From NCBI GenBank assembly GCA_034422735.1, contig DAOUJL010000039.1, positions 31,021 through 95,020 of the forward strand: DNA of 64,000 bases. Direction: 5' to 3'. A program made the translations under genes and the position numbers. Shown in pieces: positions 1,002-47,280 of this stretch (its first letter is position 1; every line of letters starts with the position of its first letter). The DNA is from Dehalococcoidia bacterium (lineage in GTDB: Bacteria > Chloroflexota > Dehalococcoidia > Lucifugimonadales > CATOSD01). The notes under the pieces were generated by a model. The model was not told where the DNA came from. It was given only the letters and a program-made list of their open reading frames with translations, and made no database searches.

Positions 1002-2603
1002 CTAGTCGTCGAACGGGGCGGGCAGCTTCATGGGGTTGAGCTCGGTGATGAGCGACTCGGTGGTCAGCACCATACCGGCCACGCTCGCGGCGTTCTCCAG
1101 GGCCGAGCGGGCAACCTTTGCCGGGTCGATGATGCCCATCTCCAGCATGCTGCCGTAGCGCTCGGTCTCGGCGTCGAAACCGTAGTCTCCGGAGCCTCCC
1201 TTGACGCCGCTGAGCACCACGTTTCCGCTGAGCCCGGCGTTGTCGACGAGGAGCACCAGGGGGGACTCCACGGCCCTAAGCAGAATGCCGACGCCCGTGG
1301 ACTCGTCGCCCTCGGCCTCCAGTTTGGAGCCTGCGGCCTGCGCGGCGCGCACCAGCGAGGTGCCGCCGCCGGCGACTATGCCTTCCTCGATGGCCGCGCG
1401 GGTGGCCGCGAGCGCGTCCTCGAGCCGCTGGCGCTTCTCGCGGAGCTCGACCTCGGTGTAGGCGCCCACCTTGAGCACGGCCACGCCGCCGGAGAGCTTG
1501 GCCGCGCGCTCATCCAGCTTCTCGCGGTCGTAATCGGACGACGTGTCCTCGGCCTGCGACTTGAGCTGGGCGATGCGGGCGGCGATGGCGTCCTTGTCGC
1601 CGACGCCCTCTACGAAGGTGGTGTTGTCCTTGTCGGCGACTACCCTGCGGCAGCGGCCCAGGTCGGCCATCTCCGCCGAGTCGAGCTTGCGCCCGATGTC
1701 GGCGCTGATGACGTTAGCGCCGAAGAGCACGGCCATGTCTTCCAGGATGGCCTTGCGGCGCTCGCCGAAACCGGGGGCCTTGATCGCGAGGCAGTTGAGC
1801 GTGCCGCGCAGCTTGTTGACGACCAGGGTCGCCAGCGCCTCGCCCTCCACGTCCTCGGCGACGATGACCAGCGTGCGGCTGACTGCGGTGAGCTTCTCAA
1901 GCAGCGGAAGCAGGTCTGCCATGGAGGTTATCTTCTCAGAGGTGATGAGCACGTAGGGGTCTTCGAGCTCGGCGGCCATCTTGGTGGCGTCGGTGACGAA
2001 GTAGGGGGAGATGAAGCCGCGGTCGATCTGCATGCCCTCGACGTACTCGACCTCGTATCCGACTCCCTTGGACTCCTCGACGGTGATGATTCCCTCGCTG
2101 CCGACGTCGTCGAGCACGTCGGCGAGTATCCGGCCCATCTCCTCGTCGTGGGCGGCGAGGACGGCGACCTGCTCTATTTGCTCCCTGCCATCCACGGGCC
2201 GGGCCATGGACTCGATCTCGGTCCTCATGGCGGCGACGGCTTTTTCGATGCCGCGCTTGAGGGCCAGGGGGTTGGCGCCGGCGGTAATGTTCTTGAAGCC
2301 CTCGCGCACGATGCTCTGGGCGAGAATGGTGGAGGTGGTGGTGCCATCGCCAACGGCGTCGTTGGTCTTGCTGGCCGCCTCCTTGAGGAGCTGGGCGCCC
2401 ATGTTCTGGAACGGCTCCTTGAGCTCGATCTCCTTGGCGATGGTGACGCCGTCGCTGCACACCTGCGGCGGACCGAAGTCGTCGTCGAGGATGACGTTGC
2501 GGCCCTTAGGCCCCAGCGTGACGCCGACGGCCTTAGCGAGAACGTCGAACCCTTCCATTAGCTGGCTTCGGGCGTCCTGACTGTACTGAAGCTGCTTAGC
2601 CAT
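1002..2603 (-). CDS. groEL: Chaperonin GroEL (60 kDa)
   Basis: 533 aa with MAKQLQYSQDAR..VGVTLGPKGRNV..AVGDGTTTSTILA..AVLKVGA motifs. GGGAGGGG SD upstream. No groES ORF is adjacent on either side. Confidence 0.97.
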   Translation of the reverse strand: MAKQLQYSQDARSQLMEGFDVLAKAVGVTLGPKGRNVILDDDFGPPQVCSDGVTIAKEIELKEPFQNMGAQLLKEAASKTNDAVGDGTTTSTILAQSIVREGFKNITAGANPLALKRGIEKAVAAMRTEIESMARPVDGREQIEQVAVLAAHDEEMGRILADVLDDVGSEGIITVEESKGVGYEVEYVEGMQIDRGFISPYFVTDATKMAAELEDPYVLITSEKITSMADLLPLLEKLTAVSRTLVIVAEDVEGEALATLVVNKLRGTLNCLAIKAPGFGERRKAILEDMAVLFGANVISADIGRKLDSAEMADLGRCRRVVADKDNTTFVEGVGDKDAIAARIAQLKSQAEDTSSDYDREKLDERAAKLSGGVAVLKVGAYTEVELREKRQRLEDALAATRAAIEEGIVAGGGTSLVRAAQAAGSKLEAEGDESTGVGILLRAVESPLVLLVDNAGLSGNVVLSGVKGGSGDYGFDAETERYGSMLEMGIIDPAKVARSALENAASVAGMVLTTESLITELNPMKLPAPFDD

Positions 2604-2666
2604 CTGTGAATCTACCCCTCCCAGGTCGTTTGTCAGGGCCGCTTGGGCGGCGCTGCTGCAGTTCGT

Positions 2667-2675
2667 ATTCTACCA
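2667..2675 (-). promoter_or_regulatory. Possible extended -10 promoter (TGgTAGAAT) for groEL
   Basis: Minus strand reads tgTGgTAGAATacgaac about 65 nt upstream of the groEL ATG. No good -35 element. Confidence 0.3.
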
Positions 2676-3003
2676 CAAAGGCTTTCTCCAAGGTGGCGGC
2701 GGGCCACATGGATTTGCCAGGGGCCGGAGCGCGGCATGGGGGGCCTTGTCAGGTTCCCGGCTGCACTCGGAATGCGTGGATCAGGGTCTTTGGGCGCGGC
2801 ACTCCGAAAAATCTGCTCAGTTCTGCTACATTCTGCCCATTCCGTAGCTGGGCGGGTTCGATTTTCTGTTCAGTCGCTGTACCAGCGGTGGTAGGTTCTG
2901 TCACAGGAACCGCGCGGAATGTCGCAGATCGTGACGGCGGTCCCGCGCCGGAGGCGGGCGGGTTTGAAACCCTACCCTACCGGCGGCTACAGCGCCTATG
3001 CAG

Positions 3004-3032
3004 TTGACGGTAGCACATGCGTGCTGTAGATT
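3004..3032 (+). promoter_or_regulatory. Orphan sigma70-like promoter (TTGACG-17-TAGATT) with a palindrome in the spacer
   Basis: TTGACG at 3004..3009, a 17-nt spacer containing AGCACATGCGTGCT (inverted repeat), and TAGATT at 3027..3032. No convincing CDS follows for about 360 nt. Confidence 0.3.
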
Positions 3033-3293
3033 CAAGAGCGTTGTCACGGCCTACTCCTCGGTTGCGAAATGCGGGGCTACTTGACATAAGGTCGTGGAGA
3101 GGGCCTGAGAGTGGGAATTTTTGTGGCATGAATAGGGAAGATCTGAGCGCCGGCGAGAATGGAAATGGCGTCGGAGTTACGCGATTGGGAAGACTTGAGA
3201 CACGAATTCTGGATGATGTGGGGTATCGCAGAGACGCACGTGAGCACTCTTGCGACGGATAGTGAACAGGCCCTGCGGCCGGCGCGAGCCAAG

Positions 3294-3322
3294 TTGACAC
3301 CCTAACCGTCGCACATTAGCAT
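3294..3322 (+). promoter_or_regulatory. Sigma70-like promoter (TTGACA-17-TAGCAT) for the NHL-repeat gene
   Basis: TTGACA at 3294..3299, a 17-nt spacer, and TAGCAT at 3317..3322, about 75 nt upstream of the ATG at 3397. Confidence 0.4.
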
Positions 3323-3396
3323 AAGCCCGAGCCGTTTCGGGGCGGTTGCGCAGCGCGCGCCGCACCAAATTCGCACATCAATTAAGGAGGCTGACC

Positions 3397-4347
3397 ATGG
3401 CCGTTATTCTGGGCGAAGGGGACTTCCGGTACGAGGCGCTCGCCGAGTGGGAGAAGCTGCCGGACGGGATGGAACTGCTGGAGACGCCGGGCGTGGCCGT
3501 GGACTCCAAGGACCAGGTGTACGCCTTTACACGCAACCCCGACAATCCGGTCGTCGTGCTGGATGCCGACGGCAACCTGGTGCGCACGTTCGGCCAGGGC
3601 ATCTTCGGCAAGCGGTCGCACGGCATACTGATAGGCCCGGACGACTCGGTGTGGTGCGCCGACGACGGCATCCACACGATCACCAAGTTCTCCCCGGAAG
3701 GAGAGCTGCTGCTGACGATAGGCACCACGAACAAGCCGGCACCGATATGGAGCGGCCAGCCCTTCAACCGGCCCACGCACGCGGGCGTGTCGCCGAACAC
3801 GGGCCACATTTTCGTCACCGACGGCTACGGCAACTCGCGGGTTCACAAGTACACGCCGGAGGGCGAGCTTGTGCTGTCGTGGGGCGAGCCGGGCATCGAC
3901 GCGGGCCAGTTCATCCGGCCGCACAACGTCGCGGTGGACTCGGACGACCTGGTGTACGTGGCGGACCGGGAGGCGCACCGGGTGCAGGTGTTCGACGCGG
4001 ACGGCAACTTCGTCACGATGTGGAACAACATACACCGGCCCGACGGCATGACGCTGGGGCCGGACGGCAACATCTACGTGGGCGAGCTGAACGGCATGGG
4101 CGGCGTGGACGACGCGCCGGGCCTGGGACACAGGGTCAGCATCCTCAATCGGGACGGCAAGCTGCTGGCGCGGTTCGGCGATCCCGAGGAGGGCGAGGAG
4201 CCGGGCAAGTTCATCGCCCCGCACGGAATCGCGGTGGACTCACGCGGCGACATCTACGTTGGCGAGGTAGCCTTCACAATCCGGGGCAGCCACATGGACC
4301 CGCCCCGGTATCCCAAGAGCCTGAAGAAGCTGCGCAAGCTGGGCTAG
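3397..4347 (+). CDS. NHL-repeat six-bladed beta-propeller protein (peptidylamidoglycolate-lyase-like)
   Basis: Repeated YVxD / GxFxxPHGxAVD units (FIRPHNVAVDSDDLVYVADR, FIAPHGIAVDSRGDIYVGE). Start moved to ATG 3397, which is preceded by AAGGAGG. The track start at 3346 is a TTG extension. Confidence 0.8.
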   Translation: MAVILGEGDFRYEALAEWEKLPDGMELLETPGVAVDSKDQVYAFTRNPDNPVVVLDADGNLVRTFGQGIFGKRSHGILIGPDDSVWCADDGIHTITKFSPEGELLLTIGTTNKPAPIWSGQPFNRPTHAGVSPNTGHIFVTDGYGNSRVHKYTPEGELVLSWGEPGIDAGQFIRPHNVAVDSDDLVYVADREAHRVQVFDADGNFVTMWNNIHRPDGMTLGPDGNIYVGELNGMGGVDDAPGLGHRVSILNRDGKLLARFGDPEEGEEPGKFIAPHGIAVDSRGDIYVGEVAFTIRGSHMDPPRYPKSLKKLRKLG

Positions 4348-4378: not shown

Positions 4379-4855
4379 CTACCGGCTCTGCTCGGCCAGT
4401 AGCGTCTCGTGGGCCCTATCTTCTATCACCAGAGAACGACCGACAGAGCGCAGGGCCTTCTCAACTGACGTCATGTGTGAGCCGTAGCCTGGATCCAGCA
4501 GCCTGCGGATAGCGTTCTCGTGCAGGCCCAAGCGGCCGCCAAGGTCCGCGTTCGTAATGCCTTGTTCTCGCATCGCCTTGTAAAGGGCCAGCTTTGCGGC
4601 GACGACGGGCGACACCGTGATCAGCACCTGGCCGTCTTGCAAGGGGCTGGGTGAGGGGATGTCTTCGTCGTTGCTGGCGTACATGCTCAATGCGACGCGC
4701 AAGCAGTCGCCGGCCGCCTCGAGGGCATCCTCCCACGACCACGCGCCCGAGTTGGCGCCGTACACGTCCGGGAACGTCACATTGTAGGCTTCCCTTCCGG
4801 TCACGCGTTCCTCTTCTCTATCACGGACTATGTTGCATGGATAGGCGTAACGCAC
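4379..4855 (-). CDS. hicB: HicB-family antitoxin with C-terminal HTH
   Basis: 158 aa. The N-terminal domain is HicB/UPF0150-like (YNVTFPDVYGANSGAWSWEDALEAAGDCLRVAL). The C-terminal part is XRE-type HTH (ITNADLGGRLGLHENAIRRLL). Lies 3 nt downstream of hicA. Confidence 0.8.
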   Translation of the reverse strand: MRYAYPCNIVRDREEERVTGREAYNVTFPDVYGANSGAWSWEDALEAAGDCLRVALSMYASNDEDIPSPSPLQDGQVLITVSPVVAAKLALYKAMREQGITNADLGGRLGLHENAIRRLLDPGYGSHMTSVEKALRSVGRSLVIEDRAHETLLAEQSR

Positions 4856-4858
4856 GGC

Positions 4859-5065
4859 CTAAAGCTCCCTTCTATCGAGATGCAAGTCTCTCAGCATCGA
4901 GGCCAGTGTGCCGACAGGAATTTCACCATGAGGGACCGTAGTCCTGTAGGGGCCGAGCCACAACTGTCCGTGACTACCCTTGCCGCGTGAGGCGGAGTAG
5001 TTGAAATTTAGCCTGCGCCTACGGGCATATCTACGGACTCTCCTGAGAAACTCCCTGTCGTTCAC
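4859..5065 (-). CDS. hicA: HicA-family mRNA interferase toxin
   Basis: 68 aa with the RGKGSHGQLW..TTVPHGEIPVGTLASMLRDL HicA pattern. GTG start. Confidence 0.8.
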   Translation of the reverse strand: MNDREFLRRVRRYARRRRLNFNYSASRGKGSHGQLWLGPYRTTVPHGEIPVGTLASMLRDLHLDRREL

Positions 5066-5071
5066 AAGGTC

Positions 5072-5100
5072 ATTTCAGCAGATGGTCGGGCAAATATCAA
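5072..5100 (-). promoter_or_regulatory. Possible promoter (TTGATA-17-TGAAAT) giving a leaderless hicA mRNA
   Basis: Minus strand reads TTGATA (5100..5095), a 17-nt spacer, then TGAAAT (5077..5072). Only 6 nt separate the -10 from the GTG start at 5065. Confidence 0.3.
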
Positions 5101-5160
5101 GGCAGTCCTGCCATCCCGAACCGTGCCACGACTCCACCGTGGGCGGTCCGCGAACCGCCC

Positions 5161-6101
5161 CTACGTCTGCGCGGTGGCCAGCAGCGTCTCGACGTCCGCG
5201 CGCGACGGCATGGCGGCCTGCGCGCCGGGGACGGTGACGGCGAGCGCGCCCGCGGCCGCGCCGAAGCGCACCGACTCGCCGAGCGATAGACCCTCGGCGG
5301 CAGCGACCGCGAAGGCAGCGCCGAAGGCGTCACCGGCGGCCACGGTGTCCACCACATCCACGGTGAACGCCGGCACGTGGCCCGATTCGTCCTCGGAGGC
5401 GTAGTACGCTCCCTGCTCGCCCAGCTTGACCAGAGAGACGGGCGCGCCCGTGGCGCGGAGCCGAGTGGCGGCGTCCGCGGCCGACGCCAGGTCGGTGACC
5501 TCGACGCCGGACAGCATGGACGCCTCGGTCTGGTTGGGGGTCAGCACGTCTGCGGCGGCGTGGATGCCCGGGGGCGCCATCTGTGCGGGAGCGGGGTCCC
5601 ACACGACGCGAACGCCGCGCCGCCGGGCCGCGGCGGCGGCCTCGAGGGTGAGCGCGGCGGGCGTTTCGAGTTGCAGGAGAAGCGCGTCCGCGCCGTCGAG
5701 GGCGCGCTGCACGGCGCGGAGCTGCGCCTGGTCGCAGGCGAGGTTGGCGCCGTACACGGCCACGATGCGGTTCTCCCTGCTGGCGTCCAGCCATATCATC
5801 GCCACGCCGGAGGCGTTGTCGGGATCGACAGCGACGCCCCCGACGTCGATTCCCTCCGAGCGCAGGCCGTCGAGCAGGGCCGCACCGAACGGGTCGTCGC
5901 CGACGCGGCCCACCATGCGCACCTCCGCGCCGAGCCGAGCCGCGGCGACCGCCTGGTTGGCGCCCTTGCCGCCCGGCAGCGTGTAGAAGAGATCGCCCAC
6001 GACCGTCTCACCGGCCTGCGGCAAGGTCTCGGCGAGAGCCGTGAGGTCCATGATGATGCTGCCGAACACCACGATGACGGGGCGCTTGCGAGTCTGGTTC
6101 G

Positions 6102-6105
<4 letters not shown>
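5161..6105 (-). CDS. rbsK: Ribokinase (PfkB family)
   Basis: Real start is MTNQTRKRPVIVVFGSIIMDL at 6105; the upstream 71 aa of the track ORF are Arg-rich junk. Carries GGKGANQAVAAARLG and the C-terminal DTVAAGDAF anion-hole motif. ATGA overlap with the upstream HAD gene. Confidence 0.85.
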
Positions 6106-7243
<1,138 letters not shown>

Positions 7244-7391
7244 TCAGTTCGCCCTGTTTACTCGCATCGGGAGTTAACGACCCTAGCTACAAAGCGAAGC
7301 GCATGGTCGGCGTGCCGGGAGATCATCGTGAAACTAACGCCTCGCAGGGTGTGGTGGCTCATCGTGCTGCCGGTGGCGCTGTTCGTGCTCA

Positions 7392-8456
7392 TCATGGCGC
7401 TGAGGTCGGCGCCGCCTTCGTAACCCTCGCCCGCTGCCGCAGCATCTCCGCCAGGCCGACGTTGATCTCTCTGGCGATGCCGGGACCTCGGTAGACCATG
7501 CCGGTATATAGCTGCACGGTGGTCGCTCCAGCGAGCAGCGCGGCGTAGGCTTCCCCGGCGGATGATATGCCCCCGCAGGCGTTGATGGCGAGACTCGGGC
7601 CGACCTCGGCCCTGACGTCCGCCACCATGCGCAGCATGTCCCCGAACACCACCCTACCGCTTACACCGCCGGACCCGACGGCCAGTCGGGAGTCGCGTGC
7701 GGGCCAGGTGTTGGAGACGGTCAGGGCGTCGGCGCCCATGTGCTCGCAGACGCCCGCGAGGGCCAGAACCCGCTGCCTCGCGGCGTCGTCATCGGGGCGG
7801 GCAGGCGCGTAGGGAGGCAGCTTGACGAACAGCGGCTTCGAGCGGCGCTCGTTTACCCTGTCGAGCAGATCGGTGAGGGCCGCGGGCTGCTGGAACACTC
7901 GTATTCCCTGCGTGTTGGGCGAGCTGATATTGACCTCGACGGCGTCGCAGAACGGCTCGGCGGCGCGATGGCACGCCACAACCTCCTCGGGCGCGACGCC
8001 GGACACGCTCACGACCACGGGGGCGTCCCCCAGCCGCCCGCGGTCGCGACGCAGCCGGCTTACGGCGTACTCGACACCCATGTTGGGGAATCCCATGGCG
8101 TTGATGAGCGACTCGTCGGCTTCGTAGCGCAGCACGCGCGGCGAGGGGTTGCCGGGCCGCGGCTGGAGGGTGACGGTGCCGCCGGTGACGTAGCCGAAAC
8201 CGAGCGCGGCGAGGGACGGCAACATCTCGCAGTTCTTGTCGAAGCCGGCCGCGACGCCCACCGGGTTACGCAGGGGCAGACCGGCGATATCGGTTCGCAG
8301 GGCCGGGTCGCGGACCGTCAGGAAGGGCGAGAGCCTCTCCCACAGCCAGTGCTGCCGGAGTGCGGCGGCGCTCACGCCGTGGGCGGTCTCCGCGTCGACG
8401 CGGAAGAACAGGCCCCGGGCGAGGGCGCGGAACGAGCTAGGTTTGAGGATTAGCAA
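7392..8456 (-). CDS. pyrD: Dihydroorotate dehydrogenase, class 2 (quinone)
   Basis: Motifs NPVGVAAGFDKN, VEVNISSPNT, TVSNT and GGISS. Start trimmed to TTG 8456 (MLILKPSSFRALARGLFFRVDAETAH), with GGGAGG 9 nt upstream. The track ORF extends into the upstream gene. Confidence 0.85.
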   Translation of the reverse strand: MLILKPSSFRALARGLFFRVDAETAHGVSAAALRQHWLWERLSPFLTVRDPALRTDIAGLPLRNPVGVAAGFDKNCEMLPSLAALGFGYVTGGTVTLQPRPGNPSPRVLRYEADESLINAMGFPNMGVEYAVSRLRRDRGRLGDAPVVVSVSGVAPEEVVACHRAAEPFCDAVEVNISSPNTQGIRVFQQPAALTDLLDRVNERRSKPLFVKLPPYAPARPDDDAARQRVLALAGVCEHMGADALTVSNTWPARDSRLAVGSGGVSGRVVFGDMLRMVADVRAEVGPSLAINACGGISSAGEAYAALLAGATTVQLYTGMVYRGPGIAREINVGLAEMLRQRARVTKAAPTSAP

Positions 8457-41261: not shown

Positions 41262-41725
41262 CTGTAGTGGACGAACGCCCGGTTGGCCTCGGCCATCCGG
41301 TGCAATTCCTCGCGCCGCCTCACGGCGGAGCCCTGGCCGCGCGCGGCCTCCAGCAATTCTTGGGCCAGCCGCTCCGAAATCGGCCGGCCGCTCCTGGTGC
41401 GTGCGCCGCGGATGATCCAGCGCATCGCGAGGGTGACGCGGCGGTTGGGCCTCACCTCGGTCGGCACCTGGTACGTCGCGCCTCCCACCCTTCGGCTTCT
41501 AACCTCCAGCATGGGCGTCGCGTTCTTCACGGCCAACTCGAACAGCTCCAGACCCGGCCTGTGCGCCTCGCGCTCGATGTTGTCCAGCGCGTCGTAGACT
41601 ATACGCTGGGCCGTGGTCTTCTTTCCGTTCAGCATCACCTTATTGATGAAGCGACTCAGCTCCACGCTCCCGAACTTCGGATCGGGAATCACGACGCGCC
41701 GTTCCGCCCTTCTTCTTCGCGCCAC
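41255..41725 (-). CDS. rpsG: 30S ribosomal protein S7
   Basis: [20 protein letters not shown].. Confidence 0.95.
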
Positions 41726-42227: not shown

Positions 42228-42256
42228 ATTATAATCCGGGGCTTGGTCAGTGTCAA
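42228..42256 (-). promoter_or_regulatory. Perfect-consensus sigma70 promoter (TTGACA-17-TATAAT) of the str/S10/spc/alpha cluster
   Basis: Minus strand reads aaatTTGACActgaccaagccccggatTATAATgcg. -35 at 42256..42251 and -10 at 42233..42228, about 88 nt upstream of the rpsL ATG. Confidence 0.7.
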
Positions 42257-42330
42257 ATTTCCGCGCGCGCCCACAGCGCGGTGCAAGACAGGGTACAACG
42301 CTTGATTTCCCGCATTGTGGGGCCGCCGCG

Positions 42331-42359
42331 TTGACAACAGGGTATACTAAGTATATATA
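42331..42359 (+). promoter_or_regulatory. Sigma70-like promoter (TTGACA-17-TATATA) driving the low-G+C cassette
   Basis: TTGACA at 42331..42336, a 17-nt spacer, and TATATA at 42354..42359. Lies 47 nt upstream of the ATG at 42406 and is back-to-back with the rpsL promoter. Confidence 0.55.
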
Positions 42360-42405
42360 CTCCACCTGAATCTCGCAGACAGAAAGTGGTGGGAAGCAAG
42401 AGTAA

Positions 42406-43059
42406 ATGATACTTAACCTAGCTGCATCAAACTTCCGAAGTCTCTCACTACGCATTGATTTTGACCCGCAATTTACCGATAGGGTCAAAGGGATATTGGA
42501 TGCGCATCAGGTGCCTTACAATGATGCTCTCCTACGGTACATCCTAGTTGGGGCGGGTTATCGAGAAGCTGGACAGAGTTACTCAGTTTCGTTGACTGCT
42601 GACTTCACCGGCGCATTGCAATGGCCCATTGTACGGGTGTGGTACAACCTTGATGTTCGCGATGGTGGATTGGAGCCTGACCGCCACAACAACTTAGCCA
42701 GAATTCAGCAAGTGTTAGATGCGGTAGGCTTTGGAGCATTCGTCACCTGTTCTTTTCAGCTCGAAACGCTATCCCTTGACGACTTTGAGCCAGTCTTGGA
42801 GCTTCCGCTCATTGTCTTCAATGGGAAGAATTCGTACTTTCAAGAAATCAGTGGAGTCCAGCTCGCCCGATTGGAGAATGAGCAAACTGTTGAGAGCATA
42901 AGCCTGGATAAGTGGTCTGGCGAGTCGATATCCTCTAATGGGTGGGTATCGTTTCAGACCCCTCGCGTCAGTTCTGAGTTAGTCTTCACTGCGTTTGGGC
43001 GAGTGGTAAACCTGCAAAACCAAGCCATTGTTAGAGTCAGTCATGGAGGCAGTCAATGA
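42406..43059 (+). CDS. Hypothetical protein P1 of the low-G+C cassette (217 aa)
   Basis: Long ORF in an AT-richer segment. Its stop overlaps the next start (ATGA at 43056..43059). I recognise no motif or family. Confidence 0.65.
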   Translation: MILNLAASNFRSLSLRIDFDPQFTDRVKGILDAHQVPYNDALLRYILVGAGYREAGQSYSVSLTADFTGALQWPIVRVWYNLDVRDGGLEPDRHNNLARIQQVLDAVGFGAFVTCSFQLETLSLDDFEPVLELPLIVFNGKNSYFQEISGVQLARLENEQTVESISLDKWSGESISSNGWVSFQTPRVSSELVFTAFGRVVNLQNQAIVRVSHGGSQ

Positions 43060-43682
43060 CGACACCAACGCCTGAGGAAGCCCACGTTCGCAGGCAGGAA
43101 GAACTGCATTTCACAAGCACTCACCTTGATTGGATGTCCTTCCCTGGTGAGCAAATAGGATTGTATGAGGGCGATGAATACATGACTGCTTCATCGCATC
43201 CCCGCGTCATGTTTGTAAGCATGTCCCCTTGGGACGACCCTGACTGGCGTTCAAAACTCGGTCAGCCGAACGAGCCGTCCCGCAGCAGAGGGCGAACCGA
43301 AACTCAGCTGGCCGACCTTGCAAGCAAGCTGGCCGAGGTTGAGAGTAAAGTCGAGGAAGTTCAGAGACTTCTCACCGAAGTGCTTGAAACGCCCAAGAGG
43401 GGACTGGGGGCTATTCACACATTGAACGAGGGCAGAGTGCGTCTAGTTCAGCCTGTCATGTATTCCACCCAAGAATTCGAGGACGAAGTTCTGGTCGGTG
43501 TTGAAGAAGTAGGCGTTTACGGTGTGGGCGTGACCGAACATGAGGCAGTTCTAGAACTGCAAGAGGAACTCTGGGCGCTTCATCAAGAACTCAGTCAGAC
43601 ACCGGACAGCGACTTGGGGCCAGAATTGCAGTCCGAGAAGCGGATTTTGCAAGGGTGGATCAGCAATGCCCTGGATGCCTAA
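43056..43682 (+). CDS. Hypothetical protein P2 (208 aa): unknown N-terminal domain, coiled coil, HicB/UPF0150-like C-terminal domain
   Basis: The central heptad-like stretch is QLADLASKLAEVESKVEEVQRLLTEVLE. The C-terminal LVGVEEVGVYGVGVTEHEAVLELQEELWALHQEL follows the xGxxGxGxTxxEAxxxxxEA pattern of HicB-type antitoxin N-domains. Confidence 0.65.
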   Translation: MTTPTPEEAHVRRQEELHFTSTHLDWMSFPGEQIGLYEGDEYMTASSHPRVMFVSMSPWDDPDWRSKLGQPNEPSRSRGRTETQLADLASKLAEVESKVEEVQRLLTEVLETPKRGLGAIHTLNEGRVRLVQPVMYSTQEFEDEVLVGVEEVGVYGVGVTEHEAVLELQEELWALHQELSQTPDSDLGPELQSEKRILQGWISNALDA

Positions 43683-43980
43683 CGGGCCGGAAGTGCAAAG
43701 GGCATTCGATAAACTGGAGCGTGTCAACGCTCGAGATTCGCAGCAAGGACTGGTGATACGTTCATCCTCTGAAAAATTTGGATACTATCTCATTGATGGT
43801 GAGAGAGCATTCAAGGTTTCATCTAAAGCTAGGCAGAGAGGCGGCATCGGTAGTGGTCGGTTGAAATCCCTCTTGACCTACCTGAGGTTGAGCCGAGAAG
43901 AGTTCAAACAACTTTGCGAGTGCCCTATGTCCGGTCCTGATTACCACAACCTGATTAAGAGCCGGACTCAACACAACTAG
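43666..43980 (+). CDS. Hypothetical small basic protein P3 (104 aa), possible toxin partner
   Basis: Overlaps the P2 3' end by 17 nt. Lys/Arg-rich (KVSSKARQRGGIGSGRLKSLLTYLRLSREEFKQL). No family assigned. Confidence 0.6.
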   Translation: MPWMPNGPEVQRAFDKLERVNARDSQQGLVIRSSSEKFGYYLIDGERAFKVSSKARQRGGIGSGRLKSLLTYLRLSREEFKQLCECPMSGPDYHNLIKSRTQHN

Positions 43981-44184
43981 GCGAAGAGAGGCCCGTGGCC
44001 GAAAGTCAGCACACCTTGATGCGTAATGTGTTCCCGCTGCATCACATTCTCTTCGCCCGAAAATGCCCCCATTGACCGAACACCAGCGGTTTTGCGCCCC
44101 TGTCGTGCGGCCAAATCTTCAACAGTTCAGCCGGCGGCGGCGTCATGCGCTGACAACCCCCTCGGTGCGAGTTATGGTTCTATT

Positions 44185-44246
44185 ACCCCCTATCGATTCG
44201 ACGGTAGGGTCGAGACCGCCCACCGAGGCGGTTTCTGTCTTTATGC
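44185..44246 (+). ncRNA. Candidate small RNA, copy 1 (double hairpin plus U-tract)
   Basis: CTGACA (44150..44155)-17-TATGGT (44173..44178), then CCCUAUCG-auucga-CGGUAGGG and GAGACCGCC-caccga-GGCGGUUUC, followed by UGUCUUUAU. A paralogue lies at 45826..45888. Confidence 0.35.
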
Positions 44247-44404
44247 GGCAGGTCTGTAACCTGCCTCCGGGGCGCGAATCGTACACCTGTGCCCTACAAA
44301 GGCGCACGAACGCCTAGCCGAACAATCCCCCACCGTTGGTATGCTGCAGCACACAACTGCGCCATACCCTGTAAATCCCGCGCGCAATTTTGTGAGGTCC
44401 GCCC

Positions 44405-45151
44405 ATGAAGCGCCTATTCGTCGCACTGCTGCTGCTTTGCCTGGCCGCCGCCTGGAGCTGCGCGGGCGAACCCGAACCGGAACCGGCCGCCGCCACACCC
44501 CAGCAGGTGGCGCAGACCACGCCAAGCAGCACGCCCACCACGCAGCCCGAACAGCCCACGCAGGGCAGCGCGTCCTCGGGCCAGAGCGGACAATCCTCCT
44601 CTGCCTCTTCCGAAGACGACGATGACGATTCGGAGGACGACGACAACGGCGACTCCGGCGAACATTCTTCAAAGAAGGACTCGGACGATGACGCGACGGT
44701 CAGCCACGCCAACCCCGGCCTGGCGGGAACCGCCTTCGACAGCAGCCGCAACGACGCGCTGTTCGACACCGAGCCGCTGAACGCCGTGACCTGGAGCGTG
44801 GAGCCCACCATATCGGCCGGCGCGCTGGACGCCGCGGGCACGCTCAGCGGCGGCGCTATGCTCTTCAACCCGATGGTGGACGGCGAGGGTGCGGGCTTCA
44901 TCGTCTATTTCGGCGACTTCACGGAGCCTATGGCGCTGCTGCTGCCCGACCTGGGGCCTATGTACGTCTGGGACAGCGAACACACCATCGCGCCGATGGA
45001 GCACGAGTTCGAAGGGTCGTCGTTCACCATCCGAGCCTACTCCCCCCTGTTCATGGACGTAGGCCCCGGCGACCTGGTCATTCGCGTGTTCGGCGTGGAC
45101 GGCGACGGCAACGACGCGCTGCTCGCCGTAGCGCCGGTAGGCTCCCAGTAG
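44405..45151 (+). CDS. Secreted or lipoprotein-like protein with an acidic low-complexity linker
   Basis: Signal peptide MKRLFVALLLLCLAAAWSCAG, then a Pro/Thr/Gln-rich and poly-Asp/Ser tract (SSEDDDDDSEDDDNGDSGE), then a roughly 150-aa globular domain with no family recognised. Confidence 0.7.
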   Translation: MKRLFVALLLLCLAAAWSCAGEPEPEPAAATPQQVAQTTPSSTPTTQPEQPTQGSASSGQSGQSSSASSEDDDDDSEDDDNGDSGEHSSKKDSDDDATVSHANPGLAGTAFDSSRNDALFDTEPLNAVTWSVEPTISAGALDAAGTLSGGAMLFNPMVDGEGAGFIVYFGDFTEPMALLLPDLGPMYVWDSEHTIAPMEHEFEGSSFTIRAYSPLFMDVGPGDLVIRVFGVDGDGNDALLAVAPVGSQ

Positions 45152-45193
45152 CACCGTCCTGACCTGAATCGAGCTGTCAGCAGGAGCACAAGG

Positions 45194-45683
45194 ATGACCA
45201 CCTCAAAGGGCGCGTTCGACTTCGGAAGCAATTGGCATAGCTTCCTATCAACAATCACAGACGAACGTATCGCCACAGCCGAACAACACCTGCAAATCGT
45301 GTTGCAGACCGGAGGGACAACTGTTTCTGGGCCTATACAACGACCAGGGAATGCGCTCTCGAATGTGGAGGGCTGTGAAACAGACATATTGCGCCGGAAC
45401 CGCCGGCAGGCTACTCATTGAAGGCGTGTTTTTGCCCTACTACTTTACGCGCTTTTGCGTCGCGAGCGTACTGCGCCGCAAGAACTTTTTCGCGGAGTAC
45501 AAGAAGAACCGGGGTATGAGCCCGTTCCACGACTGGAGAGACTGGCTGGGAGGATACCCGTTCGAAGTGGCGTCCTATGATGCCGTCACGAATGCTGTTT
45601 GCGATACGGGCTTTGAACTGGCGTGGTCCATGCCAACGAAGGGAGGAGGAAACAATCAGTGGACGTTCGTTAAGGACGGCTAA
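45194..45683 (+). pseudogene. Degraded class I SAM-dependent methyltransferase (core deleted, frameshifted)
   Basis: ORF 45194..45421 keeps the N-terminal FDFGSNWHSFLSTITDERIATAEQHL. ORF 45351..45683, in another frame, keeps the C-terminal KKNRGMSPFHDWRDWLGGYPFEVASYD..GFEL. The Rossmann SAM-binding segment expected between them is absent. Confidence 0.6.
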
Positions 45684-45825
45684 CGACCTACGGAGCGTTC
45701 TCCCCGTTCCTGGCATTGTAGTAAGGCACTGCTTTCGCCTGCCTGACTCAAATGGTGCAGAATTGTACAACTACATCAACACGTCAGACGTTGACAGCCG
45801 GCTCTTCACATGATACATTCATGTA

Positions 45826-45888
45826 ACCACCCCTATCGCTTCGCCGGTAGGGCCGAGACCGCCCACCAAGGCGGTCTCTGTCTTTATG
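45826..45888 (+). ncRNA. Candidate small RNA, copy 2 (double hairpin plus U-tract)
   Basis: TTGACA (45791..45796)-17-TACATT (45814..45819), then CCCUAUCG-cuucgc-CGGUAGGG and GAGACCGCC-caccaa-GGCGGUCUC, followed by UGUCUUUAU. Differences from copy 1 fall in loops or keep pairing (C to U gives a G-U pair). Confidence 0.35.
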
Positions 45889-45966
45889 TGCGAGCAGCGA
45901 TTGATTACCAACCTGCAAGTACAAGCCGCAAGACTTTAGCTTTGAGAAGGTGACAACCGCACCCCC

Positions 45967-47280
45967 TTACCCCCGCGCCCCCACCCGCGCCGGCGCCGCC
46001 GGCCGCCGCACGAACAACATCAGCACCGCGCCCAGGAAGCTCAGCGCCGCGAACACCGTGAACGGCACTATGTAGGTGCCCGTGGTGTCGAACATGTACC
46101 CCGCGAACAGCGGCGCGAAGATCATCCCCACGTTCATCGGAAGCTGCGACACCCCCATGATCGTCGCGAACGCCCGCCGCCCGAAATACTCGCCCCGTAT
46201 CGCCGTGGTCAGCGGCATCCGTCCCCCGAAACCGATGCCGTAGAAGAACGCGAACACCCAGGGCAGGTACGTCGTCTCGGTCTCGTTCAGCGCCAGCAGC
46301 AGAATCGCGCAGGACTGCAAGAACAGCAGGAACGCGATCAGCGGCGGCTTGGGCAGACGGTCGGCGACCAGCCCCGCCAGGATCATCGACGGCAAGGCAG
46401 TCAAGGTGTACGCCAGGGTGACAAATCCCGCGTGAGTGAGCGACATTCCCATGTCCGTCAGCTTCGGCGAAAGGTGCAGAGACAGCGAAACTATGGCCAC
46501 GCTCGAGGTGACCTGCGCGATCGTGAGCAGCCAGAACGCCGATGTCCGCAGCGCCTGCCGCACCGTAAACTGCGGCTCCGCCGCTGCCGCGGCGTGCGCC
46601 TCCCGGTCGGAGCCGTCCGCCTCGCCCTCCGGAGGGTCGCCGTCCGGCCTCATGCCGTACTCCTCCGGGTGATTGCGGATGGCCTTGGTCACCGGCCCGA
46701 TGATGACGAACATCAGCACCCCGATGCCCAGCGACACCCATCGAAATCCGAAAGACTCTATGCAGAAGGCGAACAGCGGCACCAGGAATCCACCGAACTG
46801 CGCGCCCGACATCGCCGACGCCATGGCTATGGACCGCTTGCGGTTGAACCAGTTGTTGACCATGGCGATCATCGCGAGCCAGCCGCCCAGTCCCGCCCCC
46901 AGCGAAATCACGATGAACGCCGCGTAGAACTGCCACAGCTCGTTGACCCGGGACTGCAGGACGAAGCCGACCGCCATGATGAGGTAGCCGATCAGCGTCA
47001 TGCGCCGGCTGCCCAGCCGGTCTATCAGGAAGCCCTCGATCGGACCCAGCACCGCGCCCTCGGCCCTGGAGAGCGCGAACGCGCCGGACAGCGCCGTGCG
47101 GCTCCATCCGAACTTGCGCTCCAGCGCCACCATCATCGTGCCCAACCCCTGGAACACCGTGAGCGACATGAGCGTGAGCATGAACGCCGCGATCCCGACC
47201 AGCCACCAGCCGTAGAACACGCCGCGCACCGACGTGACCAGACCTCGCCGGGGTGCGGAAACCGAATCTCCTTCACGCAT
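45967..47280 (-). CDS. MFS transporter (oxalate/formate-antiporter-like)
   Basis: 437 aa with 12 predicted TM segments. Contains GFLIDRLGSRRM (the MFS loop 2-3 motif). Confidence 0.85.
   Translation of the reverse strand: MREGDSVSAPRRGLVTSVRGVFYGWWLVGIAAFMLTLMSLTVFQGLGTMMVALERKFGWSRTALSGAFALSRAEGAVLGPIEGFLIDRLGSRRMTLIGYLIMAVGFVLQSRVNELWQFYAAFIVISLGAGLGGWLAMIAMVNNWFNRKRSIAMASAMSGAQFGGFLVPLFAFCIESFGFRWVSLGIGVLMFVIIGPVTKAIRNHPEEYGMRPDGDPPEGEADGSDREAHAAAAAEPQFTVRQALRTSAFWLLTIAQVTSSVAIVSLSLHLSPKLTDMGMSLTHAGFVTLAYTLTALPSMILAGLVADRLPKPPLIAFLLFLQSCAILLLALNETETTYLPWVFAFFYGIGFGGRMPLTTAIRGEYFGRRAFATIMGVSQLPMNVGMIFAPLFAGYMFDTTGTYIVPFTVFAALSFLGAVLMLFVRRPAAPARVGARG

Follow-up and report, generated by a model that had tools for sequence, protein, structure and literature searches.

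The three-gene cassette and its setting

The present study concerns a cassette of three overlapping genes in a Dehalococcoidia bacterium of the phylum Chloroflexota. The cassette lies on a 64,000-nucleotide stretch of contig DAOUJL010000039.1 (positions 31,021 to 95,020, forward strand), hereafter called the window. An initial annotation, made from the sequence alone, had described three open reading frames (ORFs) of 217, 208 and 104 residues, with an ATGA overlap at 43056..43059 and a 17-nt overlap at 43666..43682. All these elements are present. The three genes, and their products, are named here P1, P2 and P3:

42406..43059, + strand: P1 ORF, 217 aa
43056..43682, + strand: P2 ORF, 208 aa
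43666..43980, + strand: P3 ORF, 104 aa
43666..43682, + strand: dual-coding overlap ATGCCCTGGATGCCTAA, 17 nt, specifying the end of P2 (LDA, then stop) and the start of P3 (MPWMP)

Ribosome-binding sites are found inside the upstream genes, GGAGG preceding the start codon of P2 and GGGTGGA that of P3. Comparison with the copy at another locus, L003 (related loci are designated by L and a number), gives ratios of non-synonymous to synonymous substitution rates (dN/dS) of 0.25 for P1, 0.29 for P2 and 0.15 for P3, and all three genes are under purifying selection. Because of these ratios and of the embedded ribosome-binding sites, P1, P2 and P3 are considered as real genes. An overlap of identical length, 17 nt, joins genes 2 and 3 in 12 of the 15 tabulated loci, with ATGCCNTGGATGCCT near-identical within the core family. 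This conserved overlap implies that P2 and P3 are translationally coupled. In all nine loci for which the isoelectric point (pI) was computed, the product of gene 2 is acidic (4.4-5.1) and that of gene 3 is basic (9.2-10.5).

Horizontal acquisition of the cassette had been proposed from counts of guanine plus cytosine (G+C) made by hand. These counts are exact (45.0 % at 42421-42480 and 48.3 % at 42841-42900, against 75.0 % at 41281-41340). The whole cassette has a G+C content of 51 %, as compared to 65 % for the window, of which it is the lowest stretch. At third codon positions, the G+C fraction (GC3) is 0.50-0.57 in P1, P2 and P3, as compared to 0.85-0.90 in rpsL, rpsG, fusA and a gene encoding a transporter of the major facilitator superfamily (MFS). 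Moreover, the DNA on either side is syntenic with that of L001, which belongs to a sister genome. Identity is 91 % up to position 42270, which is 14 nt past the -35 box of rpsL, and 83 % from 45978, at the MFS gene, and the interval between these two limits differs. The contrast of GC3 with the host genes and the replaced content between syntenic flanks are the reasons why a foreign origin is retained here. Two features of the setting can be defined:

42271..45977, no strand: variable island from the rpsL promoter to the MFS transporter gene, with the cassette inside; delimited by alignment with L001
42331..42359, + strand: promoter-like site made of TTGACA (42331-42336), a 17-nt spacer and TATATA (42354-42359), 46 nt 5′ of the P1 start codon; read from the sequence

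The second feature had been presented in the initial annotation as a promoter proper to the cassette. The hexamers and their spacing are indeed there, but a stricter consensus scan omits the site because its second hexamer ends in A. Therefore, it is graded as promoter-like only. A perfect TTGACA-17-TATAAT promoter, that of rpsL, is found by consensus scan on the minus strand at 42256..42228. The distance of about 75 nt given earlier corresponds to the 74 nt (42257..42330) that separate the two -35 boxes. To call this an odd place for foreign DNA was, however, an overstatement: the rpsL-MFS gap is a variable island where L001 also carries a cassette, and the rpsL promoter is intact.

Genes 2 and 3 as a divergent hicBA pair

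P3 is a basic protein of 104 residues (pI 9.8), in which a part resembling a double-stranded RNA-binding domain (dsRBD), about residues 1-82, is followed by a C-terminal LCECPMSGPDYH extension. Taken alone, P3 stays below detection when compared with the HicA_toxin family of Pfam (PF07927). A HMMER search of 1.84 billion representatives with a P3 profile yields 71 relatives at expectation values (E) of up to 0.001, most of them 90-100 residues long and covering residues ~25-102 of P3. HicA_toxin is matched by 27 of the 68 relatives scanned, with a best E of 1.4e-5, and no other Pfam family is matched by more than one of them. A joint profile of the P3 relatives matches, over its full length and with an E of 1.8e-4, the structure 1WHZ, which is that of Thermus TTHA1913, a recognised member of the HicA family (PMC3969222).

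The genomic contexts of HicA have been sorted into 14 classes (Gerdes, 2024; mBio 15:e03293-23; PMC10865869). In Class 8, exemplified by WP_004069337/WP_004069339 of Thermococcus litoralis, hicB is upstream of hicA and the HicA protein, of about 95 residues, has two extra C-terminal helices. The HicB protein, of 331-376 residues, is made of an unknown N-terminal domain, a middle domain resembling oligonucleotide/oligosaccharide-binding (OB) folds and lysyl-tRNA synthetase (LysRS), and a C-terminal HicB-fold domain, and it has no DNA-binding domain (PMC10865869). The Class 8 sequences listed in Table S1 of this work (PMC10865869) were used for profile-profile comparisons with hhalign. The P3 family aligns with Class 8 HicA at 94 % (E 1.4e-7) and the wide P3 family at 99.3 % (E 3.7e-20). 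As judged from these profiles, P3 is a divergent toxin-like protein of the HicA superfamily, of Class 8 type. The initial annotation had recognised no family for P3 and had merely likened it to a toxin partner; both the profile searches and hhalign now agree with that comparison. A C-terminal signature, F..L..CP(M/L)S..xY, is near-invariant in the wider P3 family, and the close family (13 sequences) has 38 invariant columns.

Two other resemblances of P3 are probably due to chance or to composition. The close family matches eL37 in the profile search of the PDB (E about 0.01) with the zinc-ribbon cysteines not aligned, and these matches were taken as noise arising from basic composition. A weak similarity to FEN1, in its H3TH region (E 0.1-0.3), is seen for residues 75-97 (43888-43956), with the motif LSREEFKQLCECPMSGPDYH. 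The search with the P3 profile also returned P0027, a protein of 112 residues. In it, the C-terminal helix of P2 (ELWSLFQDL) seems to be joined in frame, as a chimera, to the C-terminal half of P3, and a deletion in the overlapping gene pair is its probable origin.

Three parts can be distinguished in P2:

43056..43292, + strand: residues 1-79, variable N-terminal extension, probably disordered
43293..43388, + strand: residues 80-111, long helix, probably a coiled coil; helical in the model, with weak matches to coiled-coil Pfam families
43389..43682, + strand: residues 112-208, antitoxin-type core; profile comparison shows its homology with the C-terminal, HicB-fold part of Class 8 HicB

In the AlphaFold model, residues 1-79 are almost devoid of secondary structure, with values of the predicted local distance difference test (pLDDT) below 50. 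They cannot be aligned between subgroups of the family, throughout which helix 80-111 is conserved. The core, for which a low-confidence model gives three strands followed by two helices, carries the motif YGVG.TE.EAV.ELQEELW, and the pI of residues 80-208 is 4.4. The homologs of the core are linked pairwise in a chain, each of them being encoded directly upstream of a P3-like gene. With hhalign, a broad profile of the core aligns over its full length with Class 8 HicB's C-terminal domain at 98.4 % (E 7.3e-15), and a close-family profile at 93.1 % (E 3.2e-7). The HicB pattern previously noticed at the C-terminus of P2 thus reflects homology to the Class 8 HicB domain, a relationship that Pfam and PDB sequence searches do not see directly. 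Pfam returns only weak recurrent matches to the antitoxin family PF12910. The PDB profile matches of the core, to a PE5 fragment or to designed helical hairpins only, were not retained.

Since P3 resembles Class 8 HicA and the P2 core resembles the Class 8 HicB domain, genes 2 and 3 form a divergent hicBA pair. Other characters of Class 8 are found in the cassette. The antitoxin gene comes first and overlaps the toxin gene; the toxin has about 95-105 residues and a C-terminal F..L..CP(M/L)..xY motif, aligned full length; a G.G.T..EA...L helix precedes a DE.L....LK..L helix in HicB as in the P2 core; and a DNA-binding domain is unrecognisable in both. However, Class 8 modules are bicistronic whereas the cassette has three genes. 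Moreover, the first ~250 residues of Class 8 HicB constitute two domains that P2 does not have, a coiled coil and a probably disordered extension being found instead. Finally, the Class 8 listing has no member from Chloroflexota, whereas the cassette comes from Dehalococcoidia. As for the canonical HicAB systems of E. coli and B. pseudomallei, they also associate a small basic toxin of dsRBD fold with an acidic antitoxin, but their gene order is the reverse of that in the cassette, and P2 has neither a helix-turn-helix (HTH) nor a ribbon-helix-helix (RHH) domain.

The first gene and the modular organisation of the cassette

P1 is an acidic protein (pI 4.8) belonging to an orphan family. A profile search of the PDB gives nothing for P1, and at E up to 1 neither Pfam nor NCBIfam gives any match, hence none to a SecB-like family. 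Homologs occur at about 50 % identity in L001 (51 %), L003 and L006 and, more distantly, at 22-31 % identity in L009, L010, L013, L014 and L019. At L014 (4746-5397), the homolog is split into two ORFs (70 aa and 174 aa), which reflects either a frameshifted pseudogene or a long-read assembly error. The possibility that P1 is a split-off N-terminus of a Class 8 HicB was considered and ruled out at the sequence level: hhalign gives 0.2 %, that is, no match, when P1 and residues 1-111 of P2 are compared with the N-terminal and middle domains of Class 8 HicB. With P1 not homologous to these N-terminal domains, the splitting of a Class 8 HicB does not suffice to explain the trio.

A first gene, of 207-226 aa, is found in 11 of the 15 tabulated loci and is absent from the four others (L007, L015, L016 and L021). 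The product of gene 2 has 178-219 residues in the former and 121-165 residues in the latter; therefore, its longer forms occur only where the first gene is present. What is conserved throughout is gene 3 together with the last ~120 residues encoded by gene 2, and the P2-P3-type pair is also found alone, as a mobile unit of two genes lacking P1.

The island of the sister genome brings further information. In L001, the region syntenic with positions 42271-45977 of the window (5068-7841) encodes a 160-aa protein with two transmembrane (TM) segments, the P1 homolog, a gene 2 product of 210 aa and a gene 3 product of 95 aa. The C-terminus of this gene 2 is unlike that of P2 and this gene 3 is unrelated to P3. 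Residues 38-112 of P2 have 32 % identity with the N-terminal and coiled-coil part of L001 gene 2 (E 6e-4). The top three PDB matches of L001 gene 3 are RelE toxins, namely aRelE 1WMI (full length, E 0.036), Rv2866 and RelE 9G12. The E-values are marginal (0.036-0.39); the best alignment spans the GxYRxxY motif; and neither Pfam (E up to 0.1) nor NCBIfam (E up to 10) gives a RelE/ParE match. Thus, L001 gene 3 is a probable RelE-like toxin gene. When the DNA of L003 is compared with that of L006, gene 3 is identical, whereas the synonymous divergence (dS) is 0.18 for gene 2 and 0.58 for gene 1. Such a mosaic implies that recombination would have occurred inside the cassette. The swap seen in L001 and the L003/L006 mosaic together lead to the idea of recombination within gene 2 and of two separable modules, one made of P1 and the P2 N-terminus, the other of the P2 C-terminus and the toxin.

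An analogous architecture is known in the toxin-antitoxin-chaperone (TAC) systems. There, a SecB-like chaperone and a short extension of the antitoxin form an autonomous module that is transferable between HigBA, MqsRA and HicAB cores (Bordes et al., 2016; PMC5105189), and a HicAB/SecB-like TAC exists in Methylomonas methanica (PMC5105189). As in TAC, a third protein and an unstructured antitoxin extension are associated with different cores, HicA-like in the window and probably RelE-like in L001. As in TAC also, the extension is absent from the two-gene homologs, the disorder of P2 residues 1-79 being modelled with low confidence. On the other hand, P1 is not SecB-like and is encoded first, whereas the TAC chaperone is encoded last, and the extension is N-terminal in P2 but C-terminal in TAC. 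The resemblance would therefore be one of architecture, an analogy and not a membership.

Distribution of the cassette

A word-indexed search of 5.8 billion proteins retrieves three clusters for P1, five for P2 and 12 for P3, all unnamed. Matches in reference genomes number four, all in metagenome-assembled genomes (MAGs) of Dehalococcoidia. The neighbourhoods of the homologs place the pair or the trio in 13 distinct genomic contexts. That the three genes form a unit, as initially supposed, is borne out by the recurrence of the trio in unrelated contexts. The copies are located as follows:

Window: next to the rpsL promoter
L003/L006: flanked by an MFS gene and an HSDR_N gene
L009: within an ATP synthase operon, in the atpF-atpH interval, its end lying 7 nt short of atpH
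L010: upstream of transaldolase and rho
L011: adjoining Eco57I/N6_Mtase/ApeA genes
L013: immediately following a 200-aa gene whose identity is unconfirmed (by eye only, fumarate-hydratase beta-subunit-like)
L015: immediately following sucCD
L020: adjoining hsdM
Other contexts: L007 (with L008 and L012), L014, L016, L019, and L017 (with L018)

At L009, the co-oriented trio extends from 4752 to 6333, atpF ending at 4687 and atpH starting at 6340. Restriction-modification genes are found near the copies of L003/L006, L011 and L020. In hosts of high G+C content, the cassette lies 7-17 points under its flanks.

These data bear on the idea that the cassette might be the decaying remnant of a phage, a plasmid or another mobile element, devoid of current function. 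Its low G+C content, the resemblance of the adjacent ORFs at 45194-45683 to gene remnants and the presence of phage-capsid-like genes near the cassettes of L009 and L011 could be understood in this way. Decay is difficult to reconcile, however, with intact ORFs having dN/dS values of 0.15-0.29 and with an architecture kept across 13 contexts, down to 22 % identity. In addition, no integrase or transposase adjoins the cassette in the window, and neither the 50,697 phage records nor the 72,556 plasmid records contain a tblastn match to P3 (E up to 0.1). The distant relative P0036 (E up to 0.001) is likewise without a match in the plasmid records, the only collection compared with it. A mere remnant thus appears very improbable.

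Among the loci with two genes, L021 is a 4.3-kb contig from an organism of 33 % G+C, with two paralogous pairs at 331-937 and 2552-3678. Its minimal pair consists of an antitoxin of 110 aa reduced to the HicB core and of a 94-aa HicA-like gene, and an additional antitoxin-like copy of 110 aa is also carried.

Interpretation and possible mechanism

We propose, with a probability that we estimate at roughly 0.6, that the cassette derives from a hicBA type II toxin-antitoxin module of Class 8 type, gained by horizontal transfer and now tripartite, in which P1 would be an accessory component. Basic P3 would bind RNA and probably cleave or sequester it, leading to growth arrest. The acidic core of P2 would bind P3 and hold it inactive, as the HicB fold does with HicA. 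P1, the N-terminal extension of P2 and the coiled coil would together form a separable accessory module controlling the stability or the availability of the antitoxin. P1 could be a dedicated chaperone or the sensor of a trigger such as phage infection, and its loss or titration would release P3. This idea of an accessory module is considered because the long forms of gene 2 occur only with a first gene, and because L001 associates a P1 homolog and a gene 2 with a weakly similar N-terminal and coiled-coil region with another core. Transcription would start at the promoter-like site in the window and would depend elsewhere on the host operons into which the cassette is inserted.

Several observations weigh against this interpretation. 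Direct comparisons of P1, P2 and P3 with Pfam, NCBIfam, PADLOC and PHROG give noise only, nothing reaching a meaningful E-value, and the assignment to families goes through transitive and profile-profile evidence. In the same way, it is through homology that a HicA fold is attributed to P3 and a HicB fold to the P2 core. The AlphaFold model of P3 (13 sequences), with a pLDDT of 51.6, shows a helix at 7-23, strands at 30-33, 40-43 and 47, and then helices, the extra ones being modelled with low confidence at 77-85 and 90-102; this succession would be compatible with a dsRBD-like fold. That of P2 (5 sequences) has a pLDDT of 49. Foldseek finds no match in the PDB at E up to 0.001 for either model, such pLDDT values making both searches uninformative. 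A DNA-binding domain that would serve autoregulation is not recognisable in P2.

The putative active site also has to be considered. In the HicA of B. pseudomallei, Gly22 and His24, in the beta1-beta2 loop, are required for toxicity (PMC3969222). The catalytic Gly-Ser-His positions of canonical HicA are occupied in P3 by Ser34-Ser35-Glu36, and the Glu stands opposite His in the alignment to 1WHZ as in that to Class 8 HicA. The listed Class 8 HicAs have His at this catalytic position, save one aberrant entry (T. sibiricus), whereas P3 has Glu, as well as Ser for Gly. The toxicity of P3 is uncertain because the residues essential to HicA, Gly22 and His24, are Ser34 and Glu36, and the RNase activity may be altered or lost.

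It may therefore be hypothesized that the cassette does descend from hicBA but has lost its role as a toxin-antitoxin module. P3 would then be a non-catalytic RNA-binding protein, and P1, P2 and P3 would form a regulatory or RNA-handling complex acting without growth arrest. Besides the replacement of the essential residues, such a loss would account for the tolerance of the cassette in essential operons, for example that of ATP synthase, and for the 38 invariant columns of P3, as expected of a precise binding surface. It would also agree with the fact that a defence module, as suggested in the initial annotation, finds no counterpart in PADLOC-DB 2.0, whose models give zero matches for P1, P2, P3 and ten proteins of related loci. 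The distribution of residues at the catalytic position argues the other way. Glu36 is invariant in the 13-sequence family, and the 68 members of the wider family have Glu in 44 cases, His in 16 and Asp in four. A Glu that is invariant in the close family and in the majority in the wider one, alternating only with His and Asp, corresponds to the pattern of a functional catalytic position. In other small RNases, such as barnase and RNase T1, Glu is the general base. Furthermore, acidic/basic pairing, tight coupling, a patchy mobile spread and restriction-modification neighbours are typical of active toxin-antitoxin modules. All in all, the loss of the toxin-antitoxin role seems unlikely to us.

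The part attributed to P1 is the second point to be weighed. Co-occurrence in 11 loci, against four without P1, and a single weak similarity of N-terminal regions including the coiled coil (E 6e-4) argue only weakly for it. The first genes of L011 and L017 have no detectable similarity to P1, and that of L020 gives a weak collinear match (E 0.003). P1 might thus be outside the mechanism, either as an independent gene sharing the transcript or as an effector in its own right, with the HicBA-like pair as an addiction or stabilising module. Such a situation would explain why the pair persists without P1 in L007, L015, L016 and L021, why the dissimilar proteins of L011 and L017 can fill the first-gene slot, and why P1 has no recognisable domain. 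It would leave unexplained, however, the overlap of the first gene with gene 2 (4 nt in 5 of the 11 tabulated trios, 17 nt in one more), the occurrence of the N-terminal extension of gene 2 only alongside a first gene, and the purifying selection on P1. In L001, moreover, the homolog of P1 and a gene 2 N-terminal region weakly similar to that of P2 have stayed together while the toxin core was exchanged. A P1 outside the mechanism is thus regarded as quite improbable, and the tripartite hicBA-type module remains the preferred interpretation.

Starting from this tripartite module, a more specific proposal may be put forward, tentatively. P1 and the N-terminal extension and coiled coil of P2 could represent a new portable control module, unrelated to SecB and fitted to HicA-like or RelE-like cores, which would make the antitoxin dependent on P1 or responsive to it, by chaperone addiction or by trigger sensing. 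The toxin would be of HicA lineage with a His to Glu replacement, and possibly with another RNA-targeting chemistry or specificity.

Other elements of the island

Downstream of P3, one more feature accompanies the cassette:

43981..44105, + strand: non-coding 3′ region, conserved and closed by a stem GCGAAGAGA...TCTCTTCGC, travelling with the cassette in L003 and L006

These 125 nt 3′ of the P3 stop codon are 79 % identical to those of L003/L006, as compared to 51 % for the following 125 nt and to a dS of 0.89 for P3. The region looks like a constrained non-coding element travelling with the cassette, a candidate 3′ stabiliser, terminator or regulatory site. A structured RNA or an attC-like site was considered and not retained, the fold having a z of -1.28, with no informative covariation in three sequences and no Rfam match.

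Further downstream, a direct repeat of 59 nt is present at 44187-44245 and 45830-45888, the two copies being 92 % identical. Each of them comprises two hairpins, CCCTAtCG/CGgTAGGG and a G+C-rich one, as well as a TGTCTTTATG tail, and each is preceded by promoter-like hexamers (CTGACA-17-TATGGT at 44150; TTGACA-17-TACATT at 45791). The repeat occurs only twice in the window and is absent from the 15 loci L001-L015, and Rfam gives no match for it. It could correspond to two paralogous small RNA genes of ~60 nt or to a duplicated terminator. That it marks a boundary of the cassette was considered and rejected, because its copies flank another segment (44246-45829) and are absent from all other loci compared.

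Between the two copies, positions 44405-45151 encode an ORF of 248 aa with a GC3 of 0.86, host-like inside an otherwise low-G+C island. Its product has a signal-peptide-like N-terminus and a long acidic, Ser/Asp-rich stretch of low complexity, and family searches give no match for it. Two overlapping ORFs of lower G+C content, of 75 and 110 aa, follow at 45194-45683, and family searches give no match for them either. By eye, the 110-aa ORF ends in a motif of the DWLGGYPFE type, as in some methyltransferases dependent on S-adenosylmethionine (SAM), which is no more than a lead. These two ORFs may be a gene remnant.

Significance for Class 8 modules and their hosts

For three "hypothetical" orphan genes that no source names, a link to a described toxin-antitoxin class is now available, and the range of Class 8 hicBA would be extended to Chloroflexota. 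The existence of a large HicA-like sublineage with Glu in place of the His essential for toxicity raises a direct question on the catalysis of HicA. After the SecB-based TAC, the cassette would provide a second, independent case of a toxin-antitoxin core gaining a third component together with an extension of the antitoxin. In this respect, the sister genome represented by L001 offers a natural "swap experiment", in which a probable RelE-like core is associated with a homolog of P1 and with a gene 2 whose N-terminus weakly resembles that of P2. Finally, the siting of a copy inside the ATP synthase operon bears on the persistence of selfish or defence modules in streamlined environmental genomes. 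If the control module is indeed portable, the settings of the cassette, next to the rpsL promoter or within essential operons (ATP synthase, sucCD), would amount to a strategy of hitch-hiking on host transcription.

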